DNA of 64,000 bases, from the NCBI GenBank assembly GCA_018825365.1, contig JAHJEV010000003.1:238619-302618 (forward strand), read 5' to 3'. The notes beneath the pieces were generated by a model. The model was not told the origin of the DNA. It saw only the letters and a list, made by a program, of their open reading frames with translations, and made no database searches. This DNA is from Patescibacteria group bacterium. GTDB taxonomy: Bacteria; Patescibacteriota; WWE3; UBA101185; UBA10185. Below are positions 42,616-58,869 of the stretch, in pieces (within the stretch, counting starts at the first letter, position 1; each line of letters begins with the position of its first letter). A program made the position numbers and the translations under genes.

Positions 42616-44220
42616 TTAACTCTTCAAACGTTTGATAAATCCTCTACCTGCATCGACCCAAAACTTAGGAGACAACATATTAACTTTAGTTTGATTCTTA
42701 TCAAAATCAAACAAATGGCCTATTAGTTTCTTTGCGGAGTAAGCTAAAAATTTAACATCCTGCCAACTTCTAATACCTGTAATTTTCCTGTACAAATACT
42801 GAGGGGAGAGAAACGATGAATACAATGCTTGGGTGAGTTCCATCAGTCTTTCCTGCGAAAAGGGAACGCTCATAACTGGTTTTCTCATATCAAACTGCTC
42901 ATAATCTTTTGGGTCTACAATAAACCATTTATTCTCCAAGCACTGCTTATAAAGCTCAGATCCGGGATAGGGAATGACAATTGTAGCCTGCATGGTATCT
43001 ACATGTCCGTCTTTAAACAGCTTTTTTGCCAAAACGATCGTGTTTTGAGCCATTTCCTCTGTCTCCCATGGGTACCCAAGCATAACAGTAATGTGAGGCT
43101 CAAGACCGGCCTTTTTTGCTTCCGCAAGATGCGGCTCTATTTCCTCCACTTTCAATCCTTTTTGGAGCCTGTCCAAAGTTTCCTGATTTGCCGACTCAAG
43201 ACCATAAAGGATAAATCTGAAATTAGCTTTCTTCATCAGCTCGCAGTATTCCTTAGTTAAGGCGTTTATCCTCATATTACAGCTGTATACTACTTTCTTG
43301 TTGTAACCGGAATTAATCATTAATTCACAAAATTTCTTTAACGGGGCGCCAATATAAAATGTTCCAGCATCGTCAAATATTTCTTTCACGCCATATGTAT
43401 CAACAACATGTTTTACTTCCTCAAATAGTCTTTCAGGACTAAATCTTCTGTATGTTCCAAAGGGATACAAAGTGAAATTCCATATACAAAAAGTACACTT
43501 ACCCCACCAACAATCTCTTCCAGAATACATATAAGTCCCGGGTTTATACTTATAATTCCCGTTTTCATACGCATAAAGCTCCCACTTCGTCAGGTCCCTG
43601 TCTATAAAAGGTAAAACGTCCAACTCGTGTTTCATATCAACAGGTCCGGAGTTCCAGTATTTCCCATGATGGGCTGCAGTTTCACCAAGCTTGACACTTT
43701 TGTTCTCTTCCCTTCCCCAAATTCCTCCTGTTAATATCTCTCCACTTTCAATAGATCTGACCAGATCCAAAAGAAGAAAATCATAGTCCCCCCCGGTTAT
43801 TATGTAATCGGCAGGACATCTTTCTAAAGTCTCAACGGGAAGGTAAGTTACGTGATCCCCAACCATAACAATTATTAAATTCGGAAATTTTTGCTTGATC
43901 TGCTTTACCAGTCCCCAACAAATCTTTATAACGGGGGTCTTCGATTCAATCATTACTAAATCCGGTTTTTCATCTTCAAGCTGCCCCGTCCACTCATCAA
44001 ATGTTTTTTTCTCCGCAATTCCATCCATCCAGATAACCTCGTAACCTTTTGACTTAAGCAAGGAAGCAGCGTAAGCCGGGACCATCGGATAAACATATGT
44101 AGGAGCATTAAAGTATTGGAACTGTCTGTTTTGGGATAAAAGCGGAACTCCCTTATCACTTTGGATTGGCGGATAACCTATTGCAACTTTAAATGTTTTT
44201 TTTTGCTTATCTTTTGGCAT
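42616..44220 (-). CDS. B12-binding-domain radical SAM protein (class B), putative methyltransferase
   Basis: It has an N-terminal cobalamin-binding-like Rossmann region and a radical SAM core with an unusual CX4CX2C motif (DCWWGKCTFC). Size is 534 aa. Confidence 0.65.
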   Translation of the reverse strand: MPKDKQKKTFKVAIGYPPIQSDKGVPLLSQNRQFQYFNAPTYVYPMVPAYAASLLKSKGYEVIWMDGIAEKKTFDEWTGQLEDEKPDLVMIESKTPVIKICWGLVKQIKQKFPNLIIVMVGDHVTYLPVETLERCPADYIITGGDYDFLLLDLVRSIESGEILTGGIWGREENKSVKLGETAAHHGKYWNSGPVDMKHELDVLPFIDRDLTKWELYAYENGNYKYKPGTYMYSGRDCWWGKCTFCIWNFTLYPFGTYRRFSPERLFEEVKHVVDTYGVKEIFDDAGTFYIGAPLKKFCELMINSGYNKKVVYSCNMRINALTKEYCELMKKANFRFILYGLESANQETLDRLQKGLKVEEIEPHLAEAKKAGLEPHITVMLGYPWETEEMAQNTIVLAKKLFKDGHVDTMQATIVIPYPGSELYKQCLENKWFIVDPKDYEQFDMRKPVMSVPFSQERLMELTQALYSSFLSPQYLYRKITGIRSWQDVKFLAYSAKKLIGHLFDFDKNQTKVNMLSPKFWVDAGRGFIKRLKS

Positions 44221-44223
44221 AAC

Positions 44224-45237
44224 TCAACCTTCAACATAATTCCCAGTTTTCTCATCAAATCTTTTTAATTTTAACTTAGGTTTTCTTAATAAACCAATTA
44301 GAAAATTGACTCCATAAACGACATGGGTCATAAACACTGCTACCTCAAACTCAAAGAATGCGACAATATTCTTCTCTTTAAAAGCAACTTTTGCCGACTC
44401 GAAGAACAAAACCGAGAGATAAACAATAATAACCCAATAATAAATGTTCCACAAAGGGGGAATGAGAAAGCAAAGAAACGGTCCTAAAACTATACCAAGA
44501 ACAAAAGCTGATGGAGCAAAATAACTAGGTATTCTTGAGGTTTCAGGAAATATTTTTGCAAACTGTCCTCTGTGTTGTCCATACCTTGAAATTTGTTTCA
44601 GATGGGGAAGTAGTAACCCTCTTCTGTGGTGGTAAACCAAAACTGATGGATCATACGAAAACCTCCTATCATATTTTTTAACTAAATCCAAACAAAGTTT
44701 GGTGTCTTCTCCCGGCCAAAATTCAGTTGTAAATCCTCCAACAGAGTCAAAAGAGTCCTTTCTTACAAAAAGATTTACCGAAGGATAATCATCAACCATT
44801 CTTTTTGGCTTAGGTATATATCTGTATGTTGTGTTGCCACTCACAAATGCGGACTCTATCACTCTACCAAACATCCTCTCGGAGTACCCAGCATCTAAAG
44901 GAGTTTCGGCAGGTCCTCCCAGTGCGTAAATACTGGCATCCGCAAATATAATTGCTGCATTCGTCAGCCAATCTTTTTTAGGATAGGAGTCGTCGTCTAA
45001 AAAGGCTAATATTTCCCCTGTTGCATTTCTTGCTCCCTGATTTCTTTTTCCTCCTGGGCTAAATTGATCGGCAAGCAAAAGTTTGAATCTGGAATCTCCA
45101 AAGTCAAACTCCTCTTTTACGTCCGTAATAATAAACACCTCAAAATTTGAGTAATTTAGGTTTTTTACATGAAAAATTATTTCTTTTACGTAATCGTTTA
45201 TTTTTCTAACGATTATTACTATCGAGAACTTAATCAT
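44224..45237 (-). CDS. GT2 glycosyltransferase with C-terminal TM pair (GtrB/ArnC-like polyprenyl-phosphate glycosyltransferase)
   Basis: A GT-A domain with an LDDDS DxD motif is followed by two C-terminal TM helices. Confidence 0.65.
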   Translation of the reverse strand: MIKFSIVIIVRKINDYVKEIIFHVKNLNYSNFEVFIITDVKEEFDFGDSRFKLLLADQFSPGGKRNQGARNATGEILAFLDDDSYPKKDWLTNAAIIFADASIYALGGPAETPLDAGYSERMFGRVIESAFVSGNTTYRYIPKPKRMVDDYPSVNLFVRKDSFDSVGGFTTEFWPGEDTKLCLDLVKKYDRRFSYDPSVLVYHHRRGLLLPHLKQISRYGQHRGQFAKIFPETSRIPSYFAPSAFVLGIVLGPFLCFLIPPLWNIYYWVIIVYLSVLFFESAKVAFKEKNIVAFFEFEVAVFMTHVVYGVNFLIGLLRKPKLKLKRFDEKTGNYVEG

Positions 45238-46060
45238 TTATTACTTCTCCTGTATTAACCCTCATATCAAGCTCTTTGTCGTATACCCAAAGTCTTTTGC
45301 TTTTATCGCTATAATAATGAAGAATTTTTAATCTATAAAAAACCGCAAGAGTGTCTAAAATCATATTTCTTATATTCTTATCCAAAAATAAAAAGGGTGT
45401 GAAATTAGTGTTAGCGTTATTCCAATCTATTTGTATTGGAGCCTCGTAAATTCTTTCAAATCCCAAATATTTTGAAACTGCCAATATTTCTATATCAAAA
45501 GCAAACGCTTTGACCAGAAGTCTTGGCAAAACCTTTTCTAACACTTCTCTTTTAAAAACCTTAAGACCGGACTGAGTATCTGTAATCTTCAAACCAAAGA
45601 GAATTCTGACAAATCTACTGTAAACCCAACTATAAAGTCTTCTTATAAAAGGGTATGCGACTTTTGATGCTGGGTGTCTTTTGCTTCCAACAATTATATC
45701 GGCGTTGTACCACTGCATGTGCTCCAAAATCATAGATACCCCATTCGGATTTATATCCATTCCGGAATCAATGAAAACAATGTAATCACCAAGGGACCTT
45801 GCCATTCCGTATCTTATTGCATAGCCTTTTCCCCTGTTTGTCTTATACCCGACAACCTTAACATCGAAAGTTTCAAGCGTTTTTGCCATTTCGTATGTTT
45901 TATCCATAAACCCATCAACAACAACAATAACTTCATAGGCCCACCTAGTTTGGGACATTACATCGACAATTCTTTGAACATCTTTAACAATGGTTTTTTC
46001 TTGTTTATAAGCAGGGATTATTACTGAAACTAATTTTTTATCTGCAGTATTTTCGGACAT
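45230..46060 (-). CDS. GT2 glycosyltransferase, DPM1-like (polyprenol-phosphate hexose synthase)
   Basis: It has VSVIIPAYKQEKTI, VVVDGFMDKT and FIDSGMD (DxD) motifs and is soluble at 276 aa. Confidence 0.8.
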   Translation of the reverse strand: MSENTADKKLVSVIIPAYKQEKTIVKDVQRIVDVMSQTRWAYEVIVVVDGFMDKTYEMAKTLETFDVKVVGYKTNRGKGYAIRYGMARSLGDYIVFIDSGMDINPNGVSMILEHMQWYNADIIVGSKRHPASKVAYPFIRRLYSWVYSRFVRILFGLKITDTQSGLKVFKREVLEKVLPRLLVKAFAFDIEILAVSKYLGFERIYEAPIQIDWNNANTNFTPFLFLDKNIRNMILDTLAVFYRLKILHYYSDKSKRLWVYDKELDMRVNTGEVIND

Positions 46061-47313
46061 TTAATGACTTGGGCATATAGATAAATTATTAAAAGACTCA
46101 GCGTAATTATACATATAATAATATTTACCCAAATAACCTGAAATAAAGATACGTGGTAAATATTTAGCAGAATATACTGCAGAAGCACTCCAGGAAGAAG
46201 CAATAAAGAAACCTTCTTCTTATCGATGGCAAGGAAAAACATCACAAAAAAGCTAATTAAAATATAAAGGCCAATGAATATTGAAAACAGAGGAAGGAAT
46301 TGGATAGAATTCTCAAATGTTTTCCCGAAGAAAAGGTGTGTGAGAAGTTGTGGAAAAATATGATAGCAAATGACTCCTGCGATCACAATAAAAATAAGCA
46401 AGGATGTTAATTTTTTAAATTCTTTAAGATAACCCTCGCCTTTAGCGTACAAACCTGTAATTTTTGGAAACATAATCACACTCACAGCTCCAGACCCAAA
46501 CAAAAATATTTTTCCTAAGGTTGCAGTTCCAGCATAGTATCCAGCGTCCAACCCCGAAAAAAATCTTTTAACCATTATTAGATCCATATTGTTTAAAGCT
46601 ATAAGGAAAAAATTCACAAACAAAACAGGCAGACTAAACGAAATAAGTTTTTTATAGTATTCATTAAGATTGAAACTTTCACTCCCAGTAACTTTGAAAC
46701 TTCCTCTTATTAATAAGAGTGATAGAACGAAAGTCAGAAGAGCTGCACCAACCATTCCTCCGAATACACCGACAAGTCCAAAACCGGCGAAAACTAAAAG
46801 TGTGGGAATAACAAACCTATTAAAAGAGCCCAGTACTTGGTATGCAGAGTACTTTTTAAATTTCTGTAAACCCTGTAAGTAAACTGGTGGAAGTGTTGAA
46901 AGAAAACCCAATCCCAATAAAACCGCGAACAACGTAATCGAAGGGACACTTTCAACCTTAAAACCGCTCGAAATTCTAAACCTTAAAAAGAAAAACACAG
47001 ATGTAAAAACGAATCCTAACAATAAAGAAGCCACGGAAAGCTTGAGGAAAAGTTTTTTCATTTTTCCTTTCTCTCCTCTCACATAAAGCTCTGACACAAT
47101 TTTTATAAGGGATATACCAAAAACAGATATAGGAACACTAACAAGGGAAGAAAGCGACAACAGCACGTTAAAAGACCCATAATCGGACACGGAAAGTTTT
47201 CTACCAAGCACAAACTGCAAAAGATAGCTAAAAAAAGCTCCAATTAGTGTCCCTGCTCCAACAATAATCGTTTGTTGTATATCTGAATTTTTTGTTGTTT
47301 CTTTATTACTCAA
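46030..47313 (-). CDS. Wzx-like flippase (MOP superfamily)
   Basis: A 427-aa protein with about 12 TM helices and a PST-family N-terminus. Confidence 0.6.
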   Translation of the reverse strand: MSNKETTKNSDIQQTIIVGAGTLIGAFFSYLLQFVLGRKLSVSDYGSFNVLLSLSSLVSVPISVFGISLIKIVSELYVRGEKGKMKKLFLKLSVASLLLGFVFTSVFFFLRFRISSGFKVESVPSITLFAVLLGLGFLSTLPPVYLQGLQKFKKYSAYQVLGSFNRFVIPTLLVFAGFGLVGVFGGMVGAALLTFVLSLLLIRGSFKVTGSESFNLNEYYKKLISFSLPVLFVNFFLIALNNMDLIMVKRFFSGLDAGYYAGTATLGKIFLFGSGAVSVIMFPKITGLYAKGEGYLKEFKKLTSLLIFIVIAGVICYHIFPQLLTHLFFGKTFENSIQFLPLFSIFIGLYILISFFVMFFLAIDKKKVSLLLLPGVLLQYILLNIYHVSLFQVIWVNIIICIITLSLLIIYLYAQVIKCPKILQIKN

Positions 47314-48943
47314 TTAAATTTTTCGCCTCTCTAATGTAAACCTTGTACACAGGAACGCCCCTTAATTTGACATCACCTATATATTTAATCACGTACCTGT
47401 CTTCTAATTTTGAATCATCATCCCAAACAGGATATACAAAATACCTAGTTTTATTGGCAAATGGAGTTAGGTTTCTTATAACTGCCCAAGCTCCAAACTT
47501 TCTGAAAAATGGCCAAACTTGCGAGTAATTTTTCTCTCTAAAACCAACGGTTACAACTTGTAATACTTCCTTCCCATATCCCTTATAAACAAGTTCCTCA
47601 AAAGAAGAGTCGGTTGAGATTATATAGCCATCTCTTTTTTGAACATTCTTAAAATAATCAATTAAAGGGTCAACGCCAATTAACCACTTGGGTTCGAGAA
47701 CATTTATTCCTGTTTTCAAACCCCCAAAAGCTGGGTTGTAATAAGATAAGTAGTCTGGATGAAGATAAATAGCTGTTAATAATACCGGGATTAATGCAAT
47801 AAGAATTTTTATCTTTCCAAATTTTAATTTTTCAAATAACCAAACAAAAAATATTGACGAGGTCAGCATCATAACAAGCTGTTCAGGCAAAATATATCGA
47901 TCAAGCTTTTTTGTAGGCAACGTTAGCTGGATAAAATAAAAAAAGATAAACACCAAAAGGTAATCCAAAAAGTTTTTGTAATAAGTTGGTAATTTTTTTC
48001 TAATAAACAATACACCTATAAAACCTACCAAAAGATAAATTGATGATCTAAATCCAAGAACAACAAAATAAAAGCTCGGTCCTGGATTAGTGACTAGTTT
48101 TCCAAAGTACAGTTGCTCATGATCCCCTTCTATTCCAATATCAACAATTCCTGAGTAAAGTGTTTTAAAAACTTCTCCTGGTTTAACCCAAAGGGCAGGC
48201 CACAAAAGGAAAAAAGTTGCGACAAGTGCAAACAACCATAAAAGGAATGGTCTTACAGATAATTTAACTGCTTTAAAAAAGTGTTTCTCTTCACGGAAAA
48301 AGAATAAAAACGATGCTAAACCAATAAAAGGAAGGAGAAACAAGGCAGAGGTCTTTGTAAGAATGGCAAGTCCAGCAAAGATTCCTGAAATCACTGCTCT
48401 TCTTATCAATTTTTTATCTGCAAGGTAGTAGTAAAACCAAAGAATGCTAACTAACATAAATGTTGATTCCAAGCCTTCCAAGTGGATTACCCGAGTCAGT
48501 GCTAAATAAAATGGCTCAAAATTTAACAAAATAAAGGTAACAATTGCATATTTCAACCCAAACAACTTTCTTAAAACATAAAATGCAAACCCGAATGCTA
48601 CTGCCTGGCCTGAAACAATAAAAATCTTTTGCCAAAGATCAAGTTGAAACACCGTGACCATACTGTTGAGTGCAGGATCCGAGTGATTAACTATATCAGA
48701 ATACAAATTATAAAACTTAATGCCAAAGCCTCCGAGCCACATCAGAGTTACACCCGGATGGTAAGTTTGCAGAGTCTGGTCAAATTTCAGTGTAAAAAAG
48801 CCGTTTCCGAAATCGTAAGTTCTTGCTTTCCACCTCCACACATCGGTGTTAAAACCGTCATTCCCTAAAGCAGGCAACCGGGTGAGTATAAAAAACAAAA
48901 CTACCAATATTTCGTATTTAATATTTTTAAAATTCTTAATCAT
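47306..48943 (-). CDS. GT-C family membrane glycosyltransferase (ArnT/PMT_2-like)
   Basis: A polytopic protein with the first-loop motif ...TYHPGVTLMW.... It is a paralog of 50450..52054. Confidence 0.6.
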   Translation of the reverse strand: MIKNFKNIKYEILVVLFFILTRLPALGNDGFNTDVWRWKARTYDFGNGFFTLKFDQTLQTYHPGVTLMWLGGFGIKFYNLYSDIVNHSDPALNSMVTVFQLDLWQKIFIVSGQAVAFGFAFYVLRKLFGLKYAIVTFILLNFEPFYLALTRVIHLEGLESTFMLVSILWFYYYLADKKLIRRAVISGIFAGLAILTKTSALFLLPFIGLASFLFFFREEKHFFKAVKLSVRPFLLWLFALVATFFLLWPALWVKPGEVFKTLYSGIVDIGIEGDHEQLYFGKLVTNPGPSFYFVVLGFRSSIYLLVGFIGVLFIRKKLPTYYKNFLDYLLVFIFFYFIQLTLPTKKLDRYILPEQLVMMLTSSIFFVWLFEKLKFGKIKILIALIPVLLTAIYLHPDYLSYYNPAFGGLKTGINVLEPKWLIGVDPLIDYFKNVQKRDGYIISTDSSFEELVYKGYGKEVLQVVTVGFREKNYSQVWPFFRKFGAWAVIRNLTPFANKTRYFVYPVWDDDSKLEDRYVIKYIGDVKLRGVPVYKVYIREAKNLIE

Positions 48944-50469
48944 TTTGTATTTAAACTATACACAGAAATTGAGGGACCCAGTCTTAAATTATCGCTAAAG
49001 TATACAATTTTTTTCAATTTTGATTTATTAGAATCCAAAAAATCTTTATCATTTTTCTCATCGGCTAAAATCAGCAGAGAGTTTGGATAATCCTTACTTA
49101 AAGTTATTCCCTTAATTGAATTTATTCCAAGACTTCCAAACACATCCTGCAAAGTTGAGTCGTTGTAAACGATTGTGGACCCAGGTTTGTTGTTTTTTAT
49201 AAGCCATGCTTGTAGTTGGTTTCTGGTATCGCCTCTGATAAACGAATAGGATTGGAGAAGTGAAAACATAAGAGGTGGTAAAAACACTGCGATTAGAAAC
49301 AACATTTTCAAGAACTTACCCGATTTTTCAAATAGAAACGAAAAGTAATCTACAAAATAACCAAAGGTTAAGGCCAAAAATGGATATGCTACGAAATAAT
49401 AGTGCGAACGATTCTTTTCAAATCCTGAAACGTACCATATTAGAAAAAGCGACATTAAATACAAAAACACTAAGTAAAACTCCCGTTGCTCCATTTTTTT
49501 CCTAATAAGTCTATATAAAAGCCATGAGAACAAGACAATAAAGCCAATCATTACTGTGTATCCGGTATCAACTAACAATTTATTAGCTATATCCGAGAAA
49601 AACTTAGTAAAATGTTCAGACAGCTTTACTGAACCAACATTTGTAAACTGCCAAAAAGCTCCTGCTGGACTGTCCGTTTTAGAAAAAGTCTTAAAATCAA
49701 GCACGGAATAAGGCGTACCTACAACAAATCCTACCAGTGCCGCTAAACCGGCTAAAACCAAGGCTTCCAAACCTTTTAAAGTTATCCTTTTAACTGCCCT
49801 ATCCTGTTTTTTCTTCTCAAAAACCCTTAAAAAATGGGCAACGGGAACCATAAGCGCAGAAAGTCCGCCGTTGTACTTTGTTGAAGCCGAAAATCCGACA
49901 AAAAGGCCCGACAAAATATAGTTCTTAATACCGGTTTCTTTAATAATACGGGTCGCAAAGTAAAGTCCCCAAGCAAGGAAAAAAGTCATCGGCACATCAG
50001 GCAAAGAATAGTGCGAGTGCCTTACATGGTAGGGCATAAGTGCAAAAACAAGTGCCGAAAAAAACCCCGCACTTTTCCCAAACAGTTCCTTACCTGATAA
50101 GTAAATGGGTATGACGGTTAAAGCTCCAAGTATGGCGCTGAAACATCTGGTTAAATAGTAAAAAACCAATTTATCATCCCACATTAAAGGAAATATCTTT
50201 ATAAAAAGGTCGCTTAATCCTAAACCCGGAACAAAACTTCTAAACTTCGCAAATACCATATATAAAAAATAATTTAAATAAATATAAAAGTGAGGCCAAT
50301 CAAAATGCTTCGGATTAATTTCAAACCTAATTCCCAGCGCAGATCTTACAATAGTCGGCTCGTCTGGATGAAATATGAAAGGAAATCCATGCTCAATCCC
50401 TGCCAGCCTAACAGCTAAAGCCAACACTATTATTAACAGTAAAATCCAGTTATTTCTTTTTTGTAACAT
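48940..50469 (-). CDS. GT-C family membrane glycosyltransferase (ArnT/PMT_2-like)
   Basis: A polytopic protein with an N-terminal loop containing ...GFPFIFHPDEPTIVRSA.... It resembles lipid-carrier-dependent GT39/GT83 enzymes. Confidence 0.6.
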   Translation of the reverse strand: MLQKRNNWILLLIIVLALAVRLAGIEHGFPFIFHPDEPTIVRSALGIRFEINPKHFDWPHFYIYLNYFLYMVFAKFRSFVPGLGLSDLFIKIFPLMWDDKLVFYYLTRCFSAILGALTVIPIYLSGKELFGKSAGFFSALVFALMPYHVRHSHYSLPDVPMTFFLAWGLYFATRIIKETGIKNYILSGLFVGFSASTKYNGGLSALMVPVAHFLRVFEKKKQDRAVKRITLKGLEALVLAGLAALVGFVVGTPYSVLDFKTFSKTDSPAGAFWQFTNVGSVKLSEHFTKFFSDIANKLLVDTGYTVMIGFIVLFSWLLYRLIRKKMEQREFYLVFLYLMSLFLIWYVSGFEKNRSHYYFVAYPFLALTFGYFVDYFSFLFEKSGKFLKMLFLIAVFLPPLMFSLLQSYSFIRGDTRNQLQAWLIKNNKPGSTIVYNDSTLQDVFGSLGINSIKGITLSKDYPNSLLILADEKNDKDFLDSNKSKLKKIVYFSDNLRLGPSISVYSLNTK

Positions 50470-52054
50470 ATATTCTCCAGTACTCTAAACCGTTAATTAT
50501 CAAAGAAGAGTCCTTTTCAACATAGTAATTTTTGTCATTTAAAACATTACTCGGCATATCTTCGTTCATCGGAAGCACTAGTAAATCGTAGTTTGAGGGA
50601 CCATAAGTTTTAACATAAAAAATTCTGGAATGGGGATAAATCGCACCCATTGGTTTAACATCGTAAAAACCCAGTTTTGGCTGACCTCCATAGCGTTTCA
50701 ATATAAAATCCCTAAGCTCGTGTATACCGACTCCAAACGCCTTCTGAACCACTATCCGATTCGCGTTCTCAGAACTTCCGACCAATGGACTTGTATATGC
50801 AAAATAGTAGGGGTAGAGCTTGATTAGCGGGTATATCCAAAACACAACTGAAAAAGCACTTATGGATAACCAAAAAAGGATTTTTGTTCTTTTGGTTCTG
50901 CAAAGGGAAAGTATCCTTGAATATCCGATTACCGCAAGAAGGGCCATAAAGGGGTAAATAACTATCATATACCTATCTATCTTCTTTGCAGGATAAATCA
51001 TCGCGGCAACATATCCAAGATTAAAGACCGCTAAATATAAACCAAAATTCAAAAACTTACTTTTTGTATCCTTTAATATCTCCCCGACTTTTTTCAAACT
51101 CGTTATTAACCCTGCGATAAACCCAATTATTAAAAACGGGGATGCCTTGACTAAAATTACCAACGGATAAAACCAAAAACCCGGATCCTTTGTCACCTCC
51201 CCAAGCAAAATCTGACTATGCCCTTTCCTCACACCTACTCGGATCGATTCGCTAAATATAAACGAAAGATAATAAACCGGTTTGACCCAAAGGGCGGGGA
51301 ATAGAAGAAATATGAAAAACACAAAAGAAAGAAAAGTCATCATGCAGTACTTAAATATTCTTCTTGGCTGCTTTGAGAATATGAAATAGCTAATTGCATA
51401 AAATAAAACAAATAAAACTGCGCCTATCGAGACACTTTTTGTAAGAAAAGATAAAGCTAAGAATAAACCAGTCAAAATTTGATAGACTATCTTTTCCTTT
51501 TTTAATCCTAAGAATGCAAAAATCAAAGAAAGTAGTAATAGAAGCGTGGTTAATACATCCAGGTGGTATAAGCGTGAGTTTCCCACAAAGAAAGGTTCGA
51601 AAGTGAAAAATACCACTGTTAAAAATGTTTTATAAAAACCAATAATCTTAGGTAAGATACAAAGTATTAGTATCAAAAGAACAAATTGGACAAGAACAAG
51701 TGAAGTTTTAGCAATCAAATCAAATGTTTCAAAATTGCTGTTGTTATATACAGTATCGTTTGTGATCTGCTTGTAAAGTTCAATCGGAATTCCAGTAACC
51801 CACATCAAAATTACACCCGGATGATAATGCTGGTAAGTTTTATCAAATTGCTGGTATTTTAAACCTACAACAAACTGCTCAGATCTGTAATGCCAATTTA
51901 CAGCATCGGGACTTATCACATCTGTCTTTAAACCCGGCAGTCTAGTTACGAAAAATAGGAGCGAGAATAAAACAATAAGAAAAATTCTAACCTGTTTATT
52001 TCTTTCTGCGCTGAATAGAAATTCAAGTAGTCTACGCGTCTTTTCCAAGAGCAT
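50450..52054 (-). CDS. GT-C family membrane glycosyltransferase (ArnT/PMT_2-like), paralog
   Basis: It has ...QHYHPGVILMW... in the first extracytoplasmic loop, as in 47306..48943, and is polytopic. Confidence 0.6.
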   Translation of the reverse strand: MLLEKTRRLLEFLFSAERNKQVRIFLIVLFSLLFFVTRLPGLKTDVISPDAVNWHYRSEQFVVGLKYQQFDKTYQHYHPGVILMWVTGIPIELYKQITNDTVYNNSNFETFDLIAKTSLVLVQFVLLILILCILPKIIGFYKTFLTVVFFTFEPFFVGNSRLYHLDVLTTLLLLLSLIFAFLGLKKEKIVYQILTGLFLALSFLTKSVSIGAVLFVLFYAISYFIFSKQPRRIFKYCMMTFLSFVFFIFLLFPALWVKPVYYLSFIFSESIRVGVRKGHSQILLGEVTKDPGFWFYPLVILVKASPFLIIGFIAGLITSLKKVGEILKDTKSKFLNFGLYLAVFNLGYVAAMIYPAKKIDRYMIVIYPFMALLAVIGYSRILSLCRTKRTKILFWLSISAFSVVFWIYPLIKLYPYYFAYTSPLVGSSENANRIVVQKAFGVGIHELRDFILKRYGGQPKLGFYDVKPMGAIYPHSRIFYVKTYGPSNYDLLVLPMNEDMPSNVLNDKNYYVEKDSSLIINGLEYWRIYVTKKK

Positions 52055-52946
52055 ATAAAACTCCTCCGATTAAACTTACTCCGATTCTGGATATGTGATA
52101 AATAATTGAAGCACTCAGTGCCGTGGTTACCGGAACCCCCACAATTGCAAATGTACTCATATACAAAGCATCCTGCACTCCAAAACCGTTTAAGGACGGG
52201 ATAAAAAAGCCTACTAGAGTAATTACAGGAAATGCCAAAAAGGCATAAAAAATTGGAATTCTCACCCCAATGGCCATAAATGTGAAGTACTGAACAAAGA
52301 TGGAGAGCACCTGAACGATTATTGAGGTCAGCATCGCAAAGCCCAGAACCTTCGGATAATTCTTATAGATAATAAGGGCGTTATAAACTTTGCCTAAAAA
52401 TTTAATCTTTCCGCTTAAAAGTTTAAGAGAAAAAATTCCAATATAAACACCAAGAATAAACCAAATAAGCAACACTAAAATTCCAAAACCCAAAGTTTTT
52501 GTCATGCTAAGAAGAGCTATCAACGCTAACATAACAATTCCGGTAAATCTCTCTGTAAAAACCGACGAAAAACCTATTCCCGGATCCCCTACTTTTTTAG
52601 CCATATGGTACATCTTGTAAACATCGCCGCCGATACTTGTCGGCATGAAGTTATTAAAAAAAGCTCCGATAAAATAAAGTGACAGAAGATATCTAACAGG
52701 CACGCCCTTTGCTTTTTCATGAACTAGCAAAGACTTCCATCTAAATGAGCTGACAACATAGTGGCCCACTATGAGCAAAAATATTAAGGGTATAAATCTC
52801 CAGTCCAAAAGCTCAAAGTTCTTAATAAACTCGGCCTTATCTACCTTCTTAAGAACAATGTACAAAATAAGCGTAAGACTCACCAACACTTTAATAATCG
52901 TATTTAGCTTTTTGGTTTTCTCTTTTCTCTCAAACTGTGGATCCAT
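52032..52946 (-). CDS. UPF0104/LPG_synthase_TM 'flippase-like' membrane protein
   Basis: A ~300-aa protein with 8 TM helices and a ...FNNFMPTSIGGDVYKMY... motif typical of the MprF-like TM domain. Such proteins often pair with DPM1-like GT2s. Confidence 0.5.
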   Translation of the reverse strand: MDPQFERKEKTKKLNTIIKVLVSLTLILYIVLKKVDKAEFIKNFELLDWRFIPLIFLLIVGHYVVSSFRWKSLLVHEKAKGVPVRYLLSLYFIGAFFNNFMPTSIGGDVYKMYHMAKKVGDPGIGFSSVFTERFTGIVMLALIALLSMTKTLGFGILVLLIWFILGVYIGIFSLKLLSGKIKFLGKVYNALIIYKNYPKVLGFAMLTSIIVQVLSIFVQYFTFMAIGVRIPIFYAFLAFPVITLVGFFIPSLNGFGVQDALYMSTFAIVGVPVTTALSASIIYHISRIGVSLIGGVLYALGKDA

Positions 52947-52949
52947 TTT

Positions 52950-54416
52950 TTACCCTTTTGATAGTAAACTTTTAAATCTTCTAAACCAGGAGACGAAATC
53001 CTTCTTTGATACAAACTCCGCAATAAAAAATGACGATGCTAATAAAAAGGCAAATGGGACAAACATTAGTAACTTAATTTCCAAACTTGGAAAAACACAC
53101 AACACGGATATAGAAAATGCCTGAACCAGTATAGCAGCGTGGTCTATATTAAAAAACATGAACTTCATTCTTTTCCTTACCCAATAAATCATAAATATTA
53201 AGCAGATAAAAGATCCAAAAGTCATTGCCCAAGAAACAGCAGATAAAAGAGGTATAAATTTGTACATTCCTAAAAACGCCAGGACAGAGCCTATAATCAA
53301 AAACAGGTAACTTACTATCATGCTTTTGGCCATCTTTGCCGGAATCATAACGCTAGAACTTATAAGGTTAATAAAGGAATAAAGGATAAATGTGAAAATC
53401 ATCGGCGGGATAAGGGGTAAAGTCGCATTATACTTGTCTCCCCCCACCAATATCTTTATAACAAAAGGCGCGAAATAAGAAGCAAACGCTCCGGAAAATA
53501 CAATCAGGGAAAAGAGTTTATTGAAGTTCTTCTCAAATAAATCCCTAAACTCATTAAGATTTCTAACGTATTTTTCTGAAAAAATCGGGATGTTAACTGT
53601 TGTCACAGAATCCGAAATACTCATTAGCTTTTTGGCGTAAAGCATTGCGAATGCATAAATTGCCACAACTTCGGTTGAATTGAAAAGACCCAAAGCGTTA
53701 CTTCCAAGCTTTTCCCAGTTCGTATAAATTATTTTTATTATATAAATAGCAATGCTGATAGAAAATATGTCCTTAAACAATCTCTTAAAATCCTTCGTTG
53801 TCGGCATTAATAGTTTTCCCTTCAAGGGTTTAAATGCCATAAAGGATAAAACTAGGGAAGAGATAATGTTAAATATCAAAAACGCGTAGAAAAACCCGTT
53901 AACTCTGTAAAGATAAACAAGGGGGATGCTGATCAAAATACTTACAAAAGCTATAGTTACTTGGTAAATAAAAAGTGCTCTGAATCTTTTCGTACCAGAA
54001 ATAACGGAATTTAAAATACCCTGAACTCCCTGAAAAAGTAGCGTAACAGAATAGATCTGAAGGGGAATCACTAACGAAACATTTTTGTACAAAACTGTGG
54101 CAAGGTAATGTGCGGAGAAGAAAAGTCCGATCGCAATTGGTAAAGTCACACAGTACCTAATAACTGATGAGGTTACAAAAATCTTAAAAATATCTTCTTC
54201 GTTTTCCGCTGAGGAAATCTCGCGTGTACTAGCTGAGACTAAACCTAGGTGCTGGTATATTCCTAAAGCTCCCCCAATAGAAATAGCCAGCTGAATTACT
54301 CCCCACTCTCCGAGACTTAGAATTCTTATGATAATAAAGGTTTGGATAATACCAAGCACCATCGCCATTCCCTGGGATAACATACTAATAATTTGCCATT
54401 TTCCAAGATCTTTCAT
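52950..54416 (-). CDS. Wzx-like flippase (MOP superfamily)
   Basis: A 488-aa protein with about 14 TM helices and a PST-family-like N-terminus. Confidence 0.6.
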   Translation of the reverse strand: MKDLGKWQIISMLSQGMAMVLGIIQTFIIIRILSLGEWGVIQLAISIGGALGIYQHLGLVSASTREISSAENEEDIFKIFVTSSVIRYCVTLPIAIGLFFSAHYLATVLYKNVSLVIPLQIYSVTLLFQGVQGILNSVISGTKRFRALFIYQVTIAFVSILISIPLVYLYRVNGFFYAFLIFNIISSLVLSFMAFKPLKGKLLMPTTKDFKRLFKDIFSISIAIYIIKIIYTNWEKLGSNALGLFNSTEVVAIYAFAMLYAKKLMSISDSVTTVNIPIFSEKYVRNLNEFRDLFEKNFNKLFSLIVFSGAFASYFAPFVIKILVGGDKYNATLPLIPPMIFTFILYSFINLISSSVMIPAKMAKSMIVSYLFLIIGSVLAFLGMYKFIPLLSAVSWAMTFGSFICLIFMIYWVRKRMKFMFFNIDHAAILVQAFSISVLCVFPSLEIKLLMFVPFAFLLASSFFIAEFVSKKDFVSWFRRFKSLLSKG

Positions 54417-54417
54417 G

Positions 54418-56565
54418 TTAATCTACCTTCAAATCTCCCAAATACATACTCATATATCTTATTCTGTTGGTTAAACTTACAAAAACTTTGTAGTTGCCGG
54501 CCTTTACATAGGAAGGCAAGGCGATATCAATGTTTTCCACGTAATAATACCCTTTTTCCCACTCTTCCGGTCTATAAAATGCAAAGGACGGCAGGTTTGC
54601 AACCTGATACATCTCCCCGGTTTTGCTGTTAACATAACTTGTGTAAAGCATGTATCCATTTAAGCTTCCCAGCTCATTTCTTTGATAAACAATTGTAGCC
54701 TTAGCATCGACTCCCCTTACGACTCTTTCCGGCAAACTATAATCTACAACACTCATGAGTTCAGAAAAAGGATAGTTAAATTTTTCTTTATACATGAATT
54801 TTTCCTGAATTGGATAGATGTCCAAAGCATTAGGATTCGCGACAGCATCTTTTTTAAACAAAAATAAATTTCCACAAGCCATAACAAGTGTGTGATCCCT
54901 ACTTGTTATTAAAAACTTCCCCACCTCACTAACAATATTTGAATCAAGCATCAAAAGAAGGGTAATTTTTCGTGAGAGCACATCTAGTATTACGTAATCG
55001 GCTTCATTCCAAAGAGCGGGGTACAAAGCATAAGTTTCTCTCATAGACAAGTGAGCTCCCAGGTTATCCGGACCGCTTACTGAAACACCGTCAGGTATCT
55101 GAGAGATTATTGCATTTGCACACTTTACATCTCTGACATCGATATCCTTAAGTTTAACGACATCACCTAGCTTCAGATCTGTTCGCTTAATAATATCCGT
55201 ATCGTACTTAGCCTGAACTCTTCTCATGACAGCCTGAGTAAACCATAAATACATGGGGTTGTCGTAATATTTCGATGTAACTAAACAGGAAACCGCAATC
55301 GCTGAGGAAAATAGAATGATAAAAACCCTCTCTGCGTTTTTACTAACGTTCTGATTTTTTATGAGCTGGCTCAAAGATTTTGATATAAAACCCACTGCGT
55401 AAATTGAAGATATTATCAGTATCGGAATTATCATAGAGATTCTGTGGTTTTGTATTTCAGAAGTACCTATTCCCTCTTCTGTTGTAAGGTAATTCATAAG
55501 AAAATCAGGAGCAGATATCAAAAGCATGGATGGGTTCAATAAAGGAGCATACAAAAGAGGCGTGAAAGTCATGCTTAAATTTTCGAGTTTATCGGTCCCG
55601 AAAAACACTCTGATAACTTTTCTGTGGTTCAGAATCATGTTTATAATCACATCCTTATAGGAGCTACCGAAGCCTTCGTATCTTCCCAGAAAATAATTTT
55701 CAAGTGTAACATTGGCACTGCTATTTACATCAACATTCAATGATTTTAAAAATCTGTTGTAACTTTCAGTTCTAAGAGGGGCGTATTTAGGTATTATCAC
55801 AAAAAAGGCCACACAAAACCAAAGAAACCCGGAAATAACCATCCCCAACCCTATCTTTGTGTTAACTTTTAAGATCCATTTTCTAAACCACTCCCTTGTG
55901 AACTTGAAGGAATCTGTAACACCGTTTCTAAAAACCAGAATAAATAACCCCCACATAAATATGTAAAGGGGAACCTGTTCCTTGCCTGACATTGTGATTA
56001 TTAAGAGTATTGATAGAACGATAATTCCTTTGGAGGTAAATCCCTTTTTATACATTTTTTCAAATACATAAAAGGCACCAAGGAAAAAAGGCACCGCTGC
56101 GGTAACCCCATGAAATCCCATTGTGGAATTAATAAAACCAAGAGCCGGATACATTAAATAGGAAACAGCAAAGGCGCACGAAGCCCATCCGGACTTGAGC
56201 TCCATGTTTGCTATCGCATAAACAATAAAGGCGCTAAGAACAACAAGTATAAGCTGGGCGTAAGCTAACGTCATCGGATGTTGGAAAAGGGCAAATACGG
56301 GCGCGAACAGCAAAAGAATTGGGTCTACGTGGCTCATTGACCATCTCGGAACGTTGGATCCAAAGTAGTCAGTCAAATACAAAATTCTCCCGTGCAACGT
56401 ATTCCAAACCATCTGAGTCATGTTCCCCTGGTCAAATTTCCCAAAGTCAAAGTTATTAAATTTAAAAATGTAAAGTCTCAGAGCTATAAAAAGGTATACT
56501 GCCGAAAAACCACCAAGTACAAGTAGATAAATATTATTTTTTATAAAATTCTTTATCTTATTCAT
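54418..56565 (-). CDS. Large polytopic membrane protein with C-terminal extracytoplasmic domain (GT-C-like; possibly DUF2079-type)
   Basis: A 715-aa protein with a polytopic N-terminal ~450 aa, including ...HVDPILLLF..., and a ~250-aa soluble C-terminal domain. Confidence 0.4.
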   Translation of the reverse strand: MNKIKNFIKNNIYLLVLGGFSAVYLFIALRLYIFKFNNFDFGKFDQGNMTQMVWNTLHGRILYLTDYFGSNVPRWSMSHVDPILLLFAPVFALFQHPMTLAYAQLILVVLSAFIVYAIANMELKSGWASCAFAVSYLMYPALGFINSTMGFHGVTAAVPFFLGAFYVFEKMYKKGFTSKGIIVLSILLIITMSGKEQVPLYIFMWGLFILVFRNGVTDSFKFTREWFRKWILKVNTKIGLGMVISGFLWFCVAFFVIIPKYAPLRTESYNRFLKSLNVDVNSSANVTLENYFLGRYEGFGSSYKDVIINMILNHRKVIRVFFGTDKLENLSMTFTPLLYAPLLNPSMLLISAPDFLMNYLTTEEGIGTSEIQNHRISMIIPILIISSIYAVGFISKSLSQLIKNQNVSKNAERVFIILFSSAIAVSCLVTSKYYDNPMYLWFTQAVMRRVQAKYDTDIIKRTDLKLGDVVKLKDIDVRDVKCANAIISQIPDGVSVSGPDNLGAHLSMRETYALYPALWNEADYVILDVLSRKITLLLMLDSNIVSEVGKFLITSRDHTLVMACGNLFLFKKDAVANPNALDIYPIQEKFMYKEKFNYPFSELMSVVDYSLPERVVRGVDAKATIVYQRNELGSLNGYMLYTSYVNSKTGEMYQVANLPSFAFYRPEEWEKGYYYVENIDIALPSYVKAGNYKVFVSLTNRIRYMSMYLGDLKVD

Positions 56566-56566
56566 C

Positions 56567-57253
56567 TCAATTCGTAAATCTAAACTTGATTAACGACCAG
56601 ACGGCTTTAATACCATCTCTCCACGTTATCTTTTTACCCTCACCAAAACTTCTCCCCTTATAATTAATCGGAACTTCTTTAATTCTTAGTCCAGACTTTA
56701 GTATTTTTGCGGTTATCTCAGGCTCAAACTCAAATCCTTCGGATTTAATATTCAGTTTTCTTACAAAATCTCCCGGCATGAGCTTATAACAGGTTTCCAT
56801 ATCGGTCAGTTTTACTCCAAACAAAATATTGGTAGCGAGTGTTAAGATCTTGTTTCCAAAATAATGAAGGGTAGTCATTTTTTCGTAACTTCCAGAGAAT
56901 CTAGACCCATAGACTACATCAGCATTGTTTTCCTCAAGCGTTCTCAAAAGCTTTTTATAATCCTGCGGGTCATATTCAAGATCCGCGTCCTGAACGATCA
57001 CATACTCTCCACTTGTATGCGCAAAACCTACCTTCAAAGTGTCTCCCTTTCCTTTGTTAGCAGTTTTATAAATAACTTTCATATCAGGATATTTCTTTTC
57101 CAGATTCTTTAATATTTCTACTGATCCATCACTTGAAGCATCGTCTACTATAACAATCTCAAGATCGACACCATCAACAGATCTGACCAAATTCACCAAC
57201 TGCTCAATTGTATTTTTTTCATTATATACGGGTATAACAACCGAAAGCTTCAT
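56567..57253 (-). CDS. GT2 glycosyltransferase, DPM1-like (polyprenol-phosphate hexose synthase)
   Basis: It has LSVVIPVYNEKNTI, VIVDDASSDGS and QDADLEYDP motifs and is soluble at 228 aa. Confidence 0.8.
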   Translation of the reverse strand: MKLSVVIPVYNEKNTIEQLVNLVRSVDGVDLEIVIVDDASSDGSVEILKNLEKKYPDMKVIYKTANKGKGDTLKVGFAHTSGEYVIVQDADLEYDPQDYKKLLRTLEENNADVVYGSRFSGSYEKMTTLHYFGNKILTLATNILFGVKLTDMETCYKLMPGDFVRKLNIKSEGFEFEPEITAKILKSGLRIKEVPINYKGRSFGEGKKITWRDGIKAVWSLIKFRFTN

Positions 57254-58869
57254 TGCTGTTTTTCCTTGTTAAACTTCAAAATATCGGTGAAGAAAATTTT
57301 CCCGTTTATAGTATACCTAAACTCTTTAACAAGCGTCAGATAAGGTCTTTTCTCAATTCCAAAATACATATCGGTATTATTTTCGTTAGTTAGTAAAATA
57401 TAATCCGGGTTTTTTCCTGAAATCCTTTTATAACTGATATCATGAAGGATCAAAACATCGTGCCGATCCCCATACACATTTTTATTTATTCCCGACCTGT
57501 TAAGATACCAGTCGGCAATTCCATATGTGTCGTTGTAAATAACATACCCGCTAAGATTTTTAGCAGCATACACGGCCGCTTCCTTCATGGAAATGTAAAT
57601 AAATCTATGGACCCAAATTGTGGCTAAACCCCAGACAAGTAGAGATATAAAAGAAAACATAAGAAACATTTTTTCTTTTCTTAAGATGAGAAAAATCAGA
57701 ATAATAATCTGCAAAATAAAAACAAATAGAAAAGCCCACTGGTTAGAAACAAGAAACTGAAGTTTAAAAATGTACTGAGTCAAGCCGAAGTTGCCAATTA
57801 GAAAAGCAAGAGCAATATAATCCAAAGCTCTCAAATGAGGGCCATTTGACTGAAACTCTTCATAAGAAAGGACAAGAAGAATCACGAAAAACGGTATTAT
57901 TGCACTGAAAAGTCGGGGCACGGCTGCCGGCCACCAAAGTATGAGAATTATTTCCAATAAGATATAAACTGATATTCCGACATTTTCCATCAAAAATCTA
58001 ACAGCAGAGCCTGTTTTTTTATATGAAAAAATGTTCTTAAAAATAAAATAAAAAAACGGTAAAAATCCAAGTATATAAAAAAGTGACGAGAAATAAACCC
58101 AAATAAGTCTCCAATCAAACGTTCTATACTCCTGTTCGCCGAAATATTTAGAATCTAAAGGACTTCTAAAGAACCAATACGGAAGTAACACAAGCAAGGT
58201 CGTTAATCCTAGAGGGAGTAAAAATTTAAGCTCGTGCCAAAGACCGAAAAAGAAAGTTCTTGGTTTAAATGCACTAAGCTTCAACCCGGAATTGAGAAAA
58301 ACTACCCCGATAAACAACGCAAAAAATAAAATGTATCCCTCAAACCTTGTTAAAATAGACAACCCGGCTAAAGCCCCAAGCAAAATACTTTTTTTGATAT
58401 CCAATTTTTCTTTCCATCTTGAAAGAAGATAAAAAATCACAATTCCAAAGAAAGAAAACGGAATATCGGACATGATTCTTATCGACCAATACAGATAAAC
58501 CGGATTTAGCGTAAAAAGGATTAGTGCAAATTTTTGATATTTCTTACTTTTTATGTGTTGACAAACTAATTTATCGAAAACGATAAACGACGCAAAACTG
58601 AAAACAAAGACCACTCCCCTACCCCACGAAATTGCATTCACTCCATGTGGTCTTGTAGCTAAAACCACTGAAAAAAATGGGGGTCTTTTCTCTTTCTGAG
58701 GATAAATACCTGTTTTTATGCTCTCCGCCGACCTTAGAATGCTGTATGAATCCCCCCATTCGGTCGCGTTGATGTTAAACAAAAACAGGTGCAGTACTAT
58801 AAAAAACGCGTATATGAGCAGTTTGCTTTTAAATATTTCAGAGAAGATAATTCTTTTTTGCGAATTCAT
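57250..58869 (-). CDS. GT-C family membrane glycosyltransferase (PMT_2/ArnT-like)
   Basis: It is polytopic, and ...YPQKEKRPPFF... resembles the 'EKPPL' loop motif. Confidence 0.6.
   Translation of the reverse strand: MNSQKRIIFSEIFKSKLLIYAFFIVLHLFLFNINATEWGDSYSILRSAESIKTGIYPQKEKRPPFFSVVLATRPHGVNAISWGRGVVFVFSFASFIVFDKLVCQHIKSKKYQKFALILFTLNPVYLYWSIRIMSDIPFSFFGIVIFYLLSRWKEKLDIKKSILLGALAGLSILTRFEGYILFFALFIGVVFLNSGLKLSAFKPRTFFFGLWHELKFLLPLGLTTLLVLLPYWFFRSPLDSKYFGEQEYRTFDWRLIWVYFSSLFYILGFLPFFYFIFKNIFSYKKTGSAVRFLMENVGISVYILLEIILILWWPAAVPRLFSAIIPFFVILLVLSYEEFQSNGPHLRALDYIALAFLIGNFGLTQYIFKLQFLVSNQWAFLFVFILQIIILIFLILRKEKMFLMFSFISLLVWGLATIWVHRFIYISMKEAAVYAAKNLSGYVIYNDTYGIADWYLNRSGINKNVYGDRHDVLILHDISYKRISGKNPDYILLTNENNTDMYFGIEKRPYLTLVKEFRYTINGKIFFTDILKFNKEKQQ

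Follow-up and report, generated by a model that had tools for sequence, protein, structure and literature searches.

The 64,000-nucleotide stretch of Patescibacteria DNA analyzed in the present study (hereafter, the window) carries at positions 44224-58869 a dense series of genes for glycosyltransferases (GTs) and flippase-family proteins, which forms part of a larger block of approximately 20-25 kb. We consider it probable that this block constitutes the central part of a machinery for envelope-glycan assembly that is conserved in the WWE3 lineage of Patescibacteria, with the roles of its members being predicted. Because gene content and order are shared by about 65 related species, the product is probably a core envelope glycan rather than an optional decoration. 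The cell envelope of the candidate phyla radiation (CPR), to which WWE3 belongs, mediates attachment to the host, and almost nothing is experimentally known about it. Although smaller than 1 Mb, these genomes retain an ordered block of this length that encodes five GT-C proteins, as many as four putative lipid-sugar synthases, and a radical S-adenosylmethionine (SAM) enzyme, which marks what the block makes as a core feature of the lineage.

The biosynthetic logic of the block, in which a GT2 enzyme provides the donor, a flippase moves it, and a GT-C enzyme acts on the outer face, is already known. The new aspects are a multi-donor block with five GT-Cs whose gene order has been preserved throughout a CPR lineage with genomes of approximately 0.9 Mb, the placement of the DUF2079 family in the GT-C fold on the basis of a structural model, and the fusion of a GT2 of the dolichyl-phosphate mannose synthase (DPMS) type with a synthase-like GT2 that has an invariant B12-binding radical SAM partner. 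Literature searches on CPR with GT-C, and on Patescibacteria with mannosyltransferase and surface layer (S-layer), returned no papers and no description of the block.

Gene order and conservation

The window matches contig JAHJCK010000002.1 of the metagenome-assembled genome (MAG) GCA_018813105.1 (Patescibacteria, WWE3 lineage, i.e., Katanobacteria), the public gene calls of which were compared with the open reading frames (ORFs). All of the ORFs named in an earlier note on this DNA were found on the minus strand with the same boundaries, in agreement with the public calls. The genes at 35462-63768 form an unbroken minus-strand run. Within 40258-63768, neighbors either share 4-32 nt or leave a gap of 1-27 nt; the spacing is -32 to +3 nt in 44224-58869, does not exceed 3 nt from there up to 63768, and is 27 nt before the gene at 40258-42588. 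The order of the block is GT4y-GT4z-GTC4-GT2c-DUF2079-Wzx2-(UPF0104)-GTC3-GTC2-GTC1-Wzx1-GT2b-GT2a-B12 radical SAM. The radical SAM gene (42616-44220) and two upstream GT4 genes were missed in the earlier note and belong to the conserved block.

A scan for conserved GTC2 motifs, using one genome per GTDB species, yielded 80 loci (L-numbers below refer to these), all ORFs of which were compared with the window proteins by BLASTP. About 66 of the 80 were of the WWE3 type, including the complete genomes CP006914.1 (RAAC2_WWE3_1) and MEWB01000001, and the GTC2 homologs carry the names Patescibacteria or candidate division WWE3. The other 13 loci, from Chloroflexota, Burkholderiales, Acidobacteriota, and an unclassified bacterium, had a GTC2 match of only 26-34% identity, mostly over the N-terminal half, and no further block gene apart from occasional matches of 24-29% resembling GT4 or UDP-glucose 6-dehydrogenase (UGD). 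All 30 loci that cover the complete block showed the same gene order and strand, as did the partial loci, with the rearranged L060 as the only exception, and the gene tables of three relatives agreed with this order. GTC2 was present in all 68 loci scored, and Wzx2 and GT4z were found in every locus reaching their positions (59/59 and 47/47, respectively). Identity to the window proteins was 58-81% for GT2c, 58-84% for GT2b, 61-80% for the radical SAM enzyme, 47-66% for GT2a, 45-76% for GT4z, and 34-69% for the five GT-C proteins.

The block reaches past both edges of 44224-58869 because the radical SAM gene on the downstream side and GT4z, GT4y, GT4x, and UGD on the upstream side are also conserved, whereas what follows the radical SAM gene differs from genome to genome. 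GT4x (61209-62408, minus strand, identified by Pfam) is an upstream gene kept in three long relatives, L087-L089, in which the GT4x-UGD order is the same, with a truncated UGD in L088. UGD itself (62398-63768, minus strand) matched the TuaD model at 547 bits. Beyond the end of the window, upstream of UGD, L087-L089 also keep a fusion of GT2 with GtrA_DPMS_TM (374 aa) and a second small DPM1-like GT2. The set conserved there, in relatives as well as in the genome from which the window derives, further includes a DUF5656 protein and a CAP-domain protein (L087 869-2772, also in L088 and L089). The conserved block has neither an initiating phosphoglycosyltransferase (Bac_transf or MraY-type) nor Wzy. 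The extra DNA within the block of some relatives encodes an Elp3-like enzyme, prolyl-tRNA synthetase, and methyltransferases, and no additional GT-C. An Elp3-like radical SAM plus GNAT protein and prolyl-tRNA synthetase lie between Wzx2 and UPF0104 at L034 3329-4975, L049 4738-6420, L060 6603-8252 (opposite strand), and L057 4102-5598.

GT-C proteins

Four polytopic proteins encoded on the minus strand exceeded the Pfam PMT_2 cut-off of 26.1 bits: the PMT_2/ArnT-like GTC1 (47306..48943, 545 aa, 29.9 bits) and GTC3 (50450..52054, 534 aa, 33.1 bits), the PMT_2-type GTC2 (48940..50469, 509 aa, 57.7 bits), and the more divergent PMT_2/ArnT-like GTC4 (57250..58869, 539 aa, 27.9 bits). Profiles made from ortholog alignments of 46-67 sequences were compared by hhalign. 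GTC1 and GTC3 matched each other over their full length as paralogs (probability 100, E 1e-72), and GTC2 and GTC4 were linked at 83-97% to GTC1/GTC3 and to the ArnT-like domain of another window protein (17239-20088). GTC3 reached 97.3% with this domain and GTC4 reached 95.9% with GTC2 over 417 columns, while the GTC1 profile matched ArnT (PDB 5ezm, E 2e-5). By homology, GTC1-GTC4 are classed in the GT-C superfamily as PMT_2, or ArnT/PMT-type, proteins (GT39/GT83-like), in agreement with the earlier description of four PMT/ArnT-like GT-Cs. Transporters and Wzy polymerases, the other candidates for the polytopic proteins, were ruled out by the hidden Markov model (HMM), profile, and fold evidence.

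The large polytopic protein encoded at 54418..56565 (minus strand, 715 aa), which had also been noted previously, belongs to the Pfam family DUF2079 (104.7 bits). In hhalign comparisons it had no link to the PMT_2-type proteins, and searches of the PDB by sequence or profile gave chance-level matches only (E 0.11 or worse). The link came from structure comparison alone: the membrane domain of the predicted structure has a GT-C fold similar to that of solved GT-C enzymes, with PimE, AftA, AftB, and AftD among the matches. The C-terminal 250 residues are modeled as beta-sandwiches with invariant Cys482 and Cys564, and these beta domains resemble glycan-binding modules. We thus assign DUF2079 by its modeled fold as the fifth GT-C of the block. 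A full-text literature search found no paper mentioning this family, to which the fold assignment gives a likely activity.

GTC1-GTC4 and the DUF2079 protein all begin with a K/R-rich N-terminus and a first transmembrane segment (TM1), directly followed by invariant acidic residues. Conserved positions are D34 after TM1, YHPGV 61-65, and KKLDRY 345-350 in GTC1; D45, D50, YxPG 77-80, and KKxDRY 357-362 in GTC3; and D45 and D66 after TM1 with H79-x-D81 in DUF2079. GTC2 has an invariant H34 P35 D36 E37 P38 (HPDEP) after TM1 and HFDWPH 55-60, and GTC4 has an invariant E37 W38 G39 D40 (EWGD) and E60 K61 R62 P64 (EKRPP, E60-K-R-P-P64). Since the N-termini are K/R-rich, TM1 is predicted under the positive-inside rule to run from inside to outside, such that the acidic residues would face outward, which is a hallmark of GT-C enzymes. 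The HPDE and EKPPL-like motifs that had been pointed out earlier thus correspond to HPDEP in GTC2 and EKRPP in GTC4, both placed outside by the predicted topology.

The 949-aa protein at 17239-20088 (minus strand) consists of an N-terminal Wzy_C domain (O-antigen ligase/polymerase-like, 41.9 bits) fused to an ArnT/PMT-like C-terminal half, which has a PMT_2 match of 80 bits, an ArnT model match of 105 bits, and WDE and YEKPPL motifs. A third Wzx gene (16013-17242) adjoins it. At least seven GT-C candidates had been counted in the window and described as unusually many for one locus. Six of them are confirmed, namely the five of the block and that at 17239-20088; the seventh, a polytopic protein encoded at 25998-27383 (minus strand), is only a probable GT-C, with 46.6 bits for the LA_3751/LA_3752 putative glycosyltransferase family and a weak likeness to GTC1 (hhalign 38%). 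Two polytopic proteins are without a detectable family. That at 27871-29556 (minus strand) had no family match and no usable sequence or profile match in the PDB, and neither it nor that at 25998-27383 had any Pfam match at E<=10. The protein at 31815-35411 (minus strand, 1198 aa) begins with approximately 12 TM segments, continues with a large region devoid of membrane segments, and ends in a TM anchor; it had no family or PDB match, with only a weak Golvesin_C match and GT-C_AftD at E 0.63, and could be another GT-C. It is fair to call this number of GT-Cs unusual, but it is not extraordinary, because clusters of several GT-C genes have precedent. The mycobacterial emb/aft region is an example.

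GT2 proteins and the radical SAM enzyme

The earlier note described two soluble DPM1-like GT2s and one GtrB/ArnC-like GT2 with C-terminal TM helices. The two soluble proteins, encoded at 45230-46060 (GT2b) and 56567-57253 (GT2c), were found as described, with the P. furiosus DPMS 5mlz as their best PDB match, while the third, encoded at 44224-45237 (GT2a), is synthase-like and not of the GtrB/ArnC type. GT2c (minus strand, 228 aa, Glycos_transf_2 126.6 bits) has no TM segment; residues 1-208 of the single sequence align with 5mlz at E 1.5e-22, ArnC follows at 1.8e-15, and the canonical DAD motif is kept in the conserved Q88 D89 A90 D91. Its best NCBIfam model was AglJ (124.7 bits, cut-off 325 bits). 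By homology and its DxD motif, GT2c would be a polyprenyl-phosphate sugar synthase and is a candidate donor synthase for GTC4. For GT2b (minus strand, 276 aa, Glycos_transf_2 79.6 bits), the best PDB match of the profile was again 5mlz (3.6e-20, positions 6-225 against residues 20-236), followed by GtrB (2.3e-14) and ArnC (1e-10), and its sequence relationships make it a candidate polyprenyl-phosphate sugar synthase of the downstream half of the block. The C-terminal TM helices of the GtrB/ArnC type are absent from both proteins.

GT2a (minus strand, 337 aa) is a membrane-anchored GT2 with 41.5 bits for Glycos_transf_2 and 26.4 bits for Glyco_trans_2_3, just below the cut-off of 27. Its assignment as a GtrB/ArnC-like protein or as a third polyprenyl-phosphate sugar synthase was rejected: its single sequence and its profile both miss DPMS, GtrB, and ArnC. 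The invariant motifs are DDD81-83, GED176-178, HHRR, and Q215xxRY219 (QxxRW-like). The predicted structure (predicted local distance difference test score 89.9) consists of a GT-A domain, an interface helix, and three long C-terminal helices, with helices at 210-229, 237-258, 262-288, and 291-317. The top ranks in Foldseek were hyaluronan synthase (HAS), PcManGT, and BcsA. According to this model, GT2a is a membrane-embedded synthase-like GT2 of the BcsA/HAS/PcManGT type with a minimal cellulose-synthase-like fold, an assignment that holds for the fold class only; the identity between GT2a and PcManGT, a membrane GT2 from Pyrobaculum calidifontis (PDB 6yv7), is only about 14-15%. A resemblance to processive synthases, which had been raised as an objection to the GT2 assignments, was thus found for GT2a alone of the three, at the level of fold class. 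The earlier figure of three to four lipid-linked donors does not stand as it was derived, given that one of the three GT2s is synthase-like and that two further DPM1-like GT2s lie beyond the window end.

The radical SAM gene (42616..44220, minus strand) encodes a 534-aa HpnJ/BchE-like protein that is class B (B12-binding) by Pfam (Radical_SAM 62.3 bits, B12-binding 41.9 bits). HpnJ was the best NCBIfam model (165.6 bits, cut-off 577.6), followed by BchE (114 bits). The protein is not HpnJ proper: the score is under the equivalog cut-off, and neither the window nor the retrieved flanking DNA showed hopanoid genes. HpnJ has been proposed to act on a glucosamine that the GT2 HpnI attaches to a lipid, contracting its ring (PMC13459092). 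The HpnI/HpnK/HpnJ hopanoid side-chain pathway resembles the present case in that a lipid-glycosylating membrane GT2 stands beside an HpnJ-type B12 radical SAM enzyme, the radical SAM gene adjoining GT2a in all 37 loci that reach it. It differs in the HpnJ score, which is far under the cut-off here, in GT2a missing the HpnI model, and in hopanoid genes, none of which were seen. The parallel for the invariant pair is, therefore, suggestive, no more. A small ferredoxin gene (85-91 aa) is located directly before the radical SAM gene at L004 16265-16540 and L089 21376-21633, though not in the window; its product is likely the electron donor for the radical SAM enzyme.

Flippases and GT4 proteins

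Wzx1 (46030..47313, minus strand, 427 aa; Polysacc_synt_3 47.6 bits, Polysacc_synt 44.4 bits) and Wzx2 (52950..54416, minus strand, 488 aa; Polysacc_synt_3 65.3 bits) are polytopic by hydropathy, with approximately 12 TM segments, and were related to each other by hhalign (97%). They are Wzx-like putative flippases of the MOP superfamily. The third putative flippase, UPF0104 or LPG_synthase_TM (52032..52946, minus strand, 304 aa), belongs to the family of the MprF flippase domain (PplT) and was above threshold for both PF03706 (140.7 bits, cut-off 33.4) and TIGR00374 (73.3 bits, cut-off 43.2). The earlier recognition of two Wzx-like flippases and a UPF0104 protein was, therefore, borne out. 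Archaeal UPF0104 proteins are fused to AglD or adjoin AglD-like GT2s and PMT/STT3-like proteins, and were predicted on that basis to be glycosylation flippases (PMC5898192; also 10.1101/2022.03.11.483950).

GT4z (58838-60037) and GT4y (60034-61212), both on the minus strand, are cytoplasmic GT-B glycosyltransferases with Glycos_transf_1/Glyco_transf_4 matches.

Partner patterns

The distribution of genes among relatives is uneven in an informative manner. GTC4 and GT2c occurred together in 45 loci, 5 loci had neither, and no locus had only one of them; GT4z directly adjoins DUF2079 in the 5 loci lacking them. GTC1 and GTC3 are both missing in L034 and L060. In four species (L015, L044, L047, and L055), GT2b and GT2a form a single ORF of 607-631 aa, with GT2b as the N-terminal and GT2a as the C-terminal part (BLASTP). 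Co-inheritance and fusion provide concrete predictions of partners, namely GTC4-GT2c, GT2b-GT2a-radical SAM, and GTC1-GTC3, that may be tested in heterologous hosts without cultivation.

Proposed assembly pathway

The families and folds of the components, the acidic motifs after TM1, the lineage-wide collinearity, the co-inheritance of GTC4 and GT2c, the GT2b-GT2a fusion, and the paralogy of GTC1 and GTC3 are observed here; the lipid carrier, the sugars, the pairing of flippases with substrates and of donors with GT-Cs, and the acceptor are inferred by analogy. In the pathway that we propose, the DPMS-like GT2s (GT2c, GT2b, and the two beyond the window end) would attach individual sugars, taken from nucleotide sugars, to polyprenyl phosphate at the cytoplasmic face. 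GT2b may work physically with the membrane-anchored GT2a, which would lengthen a lipid-linked intermediate by one or more sugars; this intermediate may be modified by the B12 radical SAM enzyme. Wzx1 and Wzx2 are envisaged to move lipid-linked sugars to the outer leaflet, with UPF0104 helping in some lineages, after which the five GT-Cs would use them at the outer face to extend an envelope glycoconjugate. The primer of this glycoconjugate probably derives from the conserved GT4s and UDP-glucuronate; since the block has GT4s and UGD and lacks an initiating phosphoglycosyltransferase and Wzy, a GT4-built primer, possibly a glycolipid as in lipomannan, appears plausible by analogy. The general logic assumed in the earlier note, in which GT2s load polyprenyl phosphate and GT-Cs transfer on the outer face after flipping, fits the families, the modeled DUF2079 fold, the acidic motifs after TM1, and the GTC4/GT2c co-occurrence.

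The same GT2-to-GT-C logic is found in ArnC/ArnT, GtrB/GtrC, and mycobacterial Ppm1 with PimE/Mpt/Emb/Aft. In the assembly of mycobacterial and corynebacterial lipomannan, lipoarabinomannan, and arabinogalactan, Ppm1 works with the GT4s PimA/PimB and the GT-Cs PimE, MptA-C, EmbA-C, and AftA-D. Common to this system and the WWE3 block are a DPM1-like GT2 donor, a GT4 primer, and many outer-face GT-Cs, several of them clustered, in a core that is not strain-variable. However, there is no sequence orthology, the block GT-Cs being PMT_2 and DUF2079 proteins rather than Emb/Aft/Mpt. MOP and UPF0104 proteins are encoded within the WWE3 block, the mycobacterial system has no counterpart of the synthase-like/DPMS-like GT2 pair or the B12 radical SAM enzyme, and the WWE3 host genome is only about 0.9 Mb.

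Streptococcal GacI, an undecaprenyl-phosphate (Und-P)-GlcNAc synthase, works with the GT-C GacL (10.1101/180810). In the GacI/GacJ/GacK/GacL side-chain pathway (10.1101/180810), a GT2 makes the Und-P-sugar, and a flippase and a GT-C act in its transfer onto a wall polymer. GTC4 plus GT2c has the form of such a two-gene unit. GT2c and GT2b match ArnC and GtrB in sequence but have no C-terminal TM helices. The Gac, Arn, and Gtr systems are accessory, with one donor and one GT-C, whereas the WWE3 block is invariant and combines five GT-Cs with as many as four candidate donor synthases. In archaea, AglD/AglJ-type GT2, UPF0104, and PMT/STT3-like proteins (arCOG00563, Agl23-type) form a triad of families encoded together (PMC5898192), as in the present block, and AglJ is the best NCBIfam model of both GT2b and GT2c; the differences are scores far under the equivalog cut-offs here, a bacterial host, an optional UPF0104, and a module with multiple GT-Cs.

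Several points weigh against the assignment of the block to a core envelope glycan. The roles of all of its members are predicted from sequences and models. The PMT_2 matches of GTC1, GTC3, and GTC4 (29.9, 33.1, and 27.9 bits) are close to the cut-off, for which reason these proteins were tested independently with ortholog profiles, and the GTC4 profile was without any PDB sequence match. GT2b has DxG in place of the metal-binding DxD (D98 corresponds to DPMS D89 and G100 to D91), with Gly in nearly all orthologs, and its activity could, therefore, differ. MOP proteins normally flip undecaprenyl-diphosphate (Und-PP)-oligosaccharides, which makes the substrates of Wzx1 and Wzx2 uncertain. The UPF0104 gene is dispensable in an entire clade: it is missing in 13 of the 63 loci spanning its position, including the complete RAAC2 genome (L017), in which Wzx2 adjoins GTC3. 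The GT4s match NCBIfam models only generically, below threshold, and in a mutually inconsistent manner, and nothing is thus learned from them on the acceptor. Housekeeping genes break the block in some genomes. Many MAG taxon labels are automatic ("Saccharibacteria", "Nomurabacteria"); therefore, the WWE3-wide distribution is based on the named WWE3 genomes and sequence similarity.

Alternative explanations

The alternative that survives best, although we consider it unlikely, is protein glycosylation, in which the GT-Cs would act as PMT-, AglS-, or oligosaccharyltransferase-type enzymes on S-layer, pilin, or other surface proteins using polyprenyl-phosphate sugar donors. PMT_2 is a family related to protein mannosyltransferases, and the best NCBIfam models of GT2b and GT2c, AglJ and PgfS, are both from protein glycosylation pathways. 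GTC2 has a PMT-like D-E pair (HPDE) and sub-threshold matches to STT3 (19.9 bits, cut-off 24.5; Pfam E 6e-4) and archaeo_STT3 (35.9 bits, cut-off 450), and the Agl23 model (TIGR03663) was a weak NCBIfam match for GTC3 (26.5 bits, cut-off 126). The archaeal neighborhood of UPF0104, GT2, and PMT/STT3-like genes has also been linked to S-layer glycosylation (PMC5898192). However, Pfam scans detected no MIR domain in GTC1-GTC4 or DUF2079, and no WWDxG motif was present in any of the five, with no WWD at all in the GTC2 sequence; none of them thus qualifies as a PMT proper (GT39) or an oligosaccharyltransferase (STT3/AglB/PglB). The gene tables of the relatives contained no candidate target-protein gene conserved within the block, the modeled C-terminal beta domains of DUF2079 are similar to glycan-binding modules, and the combination of five GT-Cs, a synthase-like GT2, three GT4s, and UGD fits the assembly of a polymer or lipoglycan better.

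The earlier note had taken the block to carry out an elaborate modification that comes on top of a repeat unit built by GT4s. In this decoration reading, the block would only supply Gtr/Arn/Gac-style side-chain sugars to a polymer made by GT4, Bac_transf, Wzx, and Wzy genes elsewhere in the window. The window indeed holds Bac_transf (6577-7218), the third Wzx (16013-17242), the Wzy_C-PMT fusion (17239-20088), and many GT4s, and GTC4 plus GT2c behaves as a removable cassette in 5 loci, in the manner of a side-chain module. Nevertheless, the block is a collinear, lineage-wide core without an initiating phosphoglycosyltransferase or Wzy. Apart from that cassette, its content and order are invariant over about 65 species at 35-80% identity, whereas decoration loci are typically strain-variable, and here the genes that vary are found beyond the block, after the radical SAM gene. 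A set of five GT-Cs serving only for decoration also argues against this idea, which did not hold up and which we now regard as quite improbable. It is very improbable that GT2a is a processive synthase polymerizing and exporting a GT2b-primed homopolymer (beta-glucan, chitin-like, or hyaluronan-like) with the GT-Cs in a secondary role: the fold nearest to HAS, BcsA, and PcManGT, the GED and QxxRY motifs, the UGD gene in the block, and the GT2b-GT2a fusion are in its favor, but approximately three C-terminal TM helices plus one interface helix are too few for an HAS/BcsA-type channel, and the best NCBIfam matches, MftF, EpsD, and AglG, act on lipid- or cofactor-linked acceptors.

A core envelope glycan is consistent with the unusually high number of glycosyltransferases reported for WWE3, the highest among four CPR genomes (Kantor et al., PMC3812714). 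In the same report, a peptidoglycan pathway could not be completely identified in WWE3. The block might make the principal WWE3 envelope polymer, a lipoglycan or wall glycan assembled almost wholly outside the membrane from polyprenyl-phosphate sugars, and could thereby make up for this incomplete identification of peptidoglycan synthesis. One building block might be a polyprenyl-phosphate-linked oligosaccharide from GT2b-GT2a, which the HpnJ-like B12 radical SAM enzyme would rearrange on the lipid through C-methylation or contraction of a ring. This joint reading is speculative, and we give it only a small chance. If true, the rearrangement of a lipid-linked sugar by a B12 radical SAM enzyme would represent a chemistry that is not known from bacterial wall glycans.

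Other features of the window

Neither tRNA genes nor Rfam families at the gathering threshold were detected across window positions 1-64000. In L086, no mur genes follow mraZ/mraW, only an FtsL-like gene and an FtsI-type penicillin-binding protein gene, and then unrelated genes. A DUF4012 protein and a Bac_transf phosphoglycosyltransferase (4535-7218, minus strand) are encoded at the far end of the locus. An AbiEii/AbiEi-like toxin-antitoxin pair at 23829-25110 (plus strand) interrupts the glycan locus midway, oriented against its genes and placed in the part of the window with the lowest GC content (0.32-0.34 at 24-28 kb), which suggests an insertion.

The gene at 40258-42588 (minus strand) encodes a GDP-mannose 4,6-dehydratase (TIGR01472, 531 bits) fused to a C-methyltransferase in a single 776-aa ORF. 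At 42327, the window reads ATCTCATC, while the copy in the public record (L001) reads ATCTATC, with one base fewer, and the gene is called there as fragments of 84 aa and 437 aa. The intact 776-aa fusion, therefore, depends on one base.

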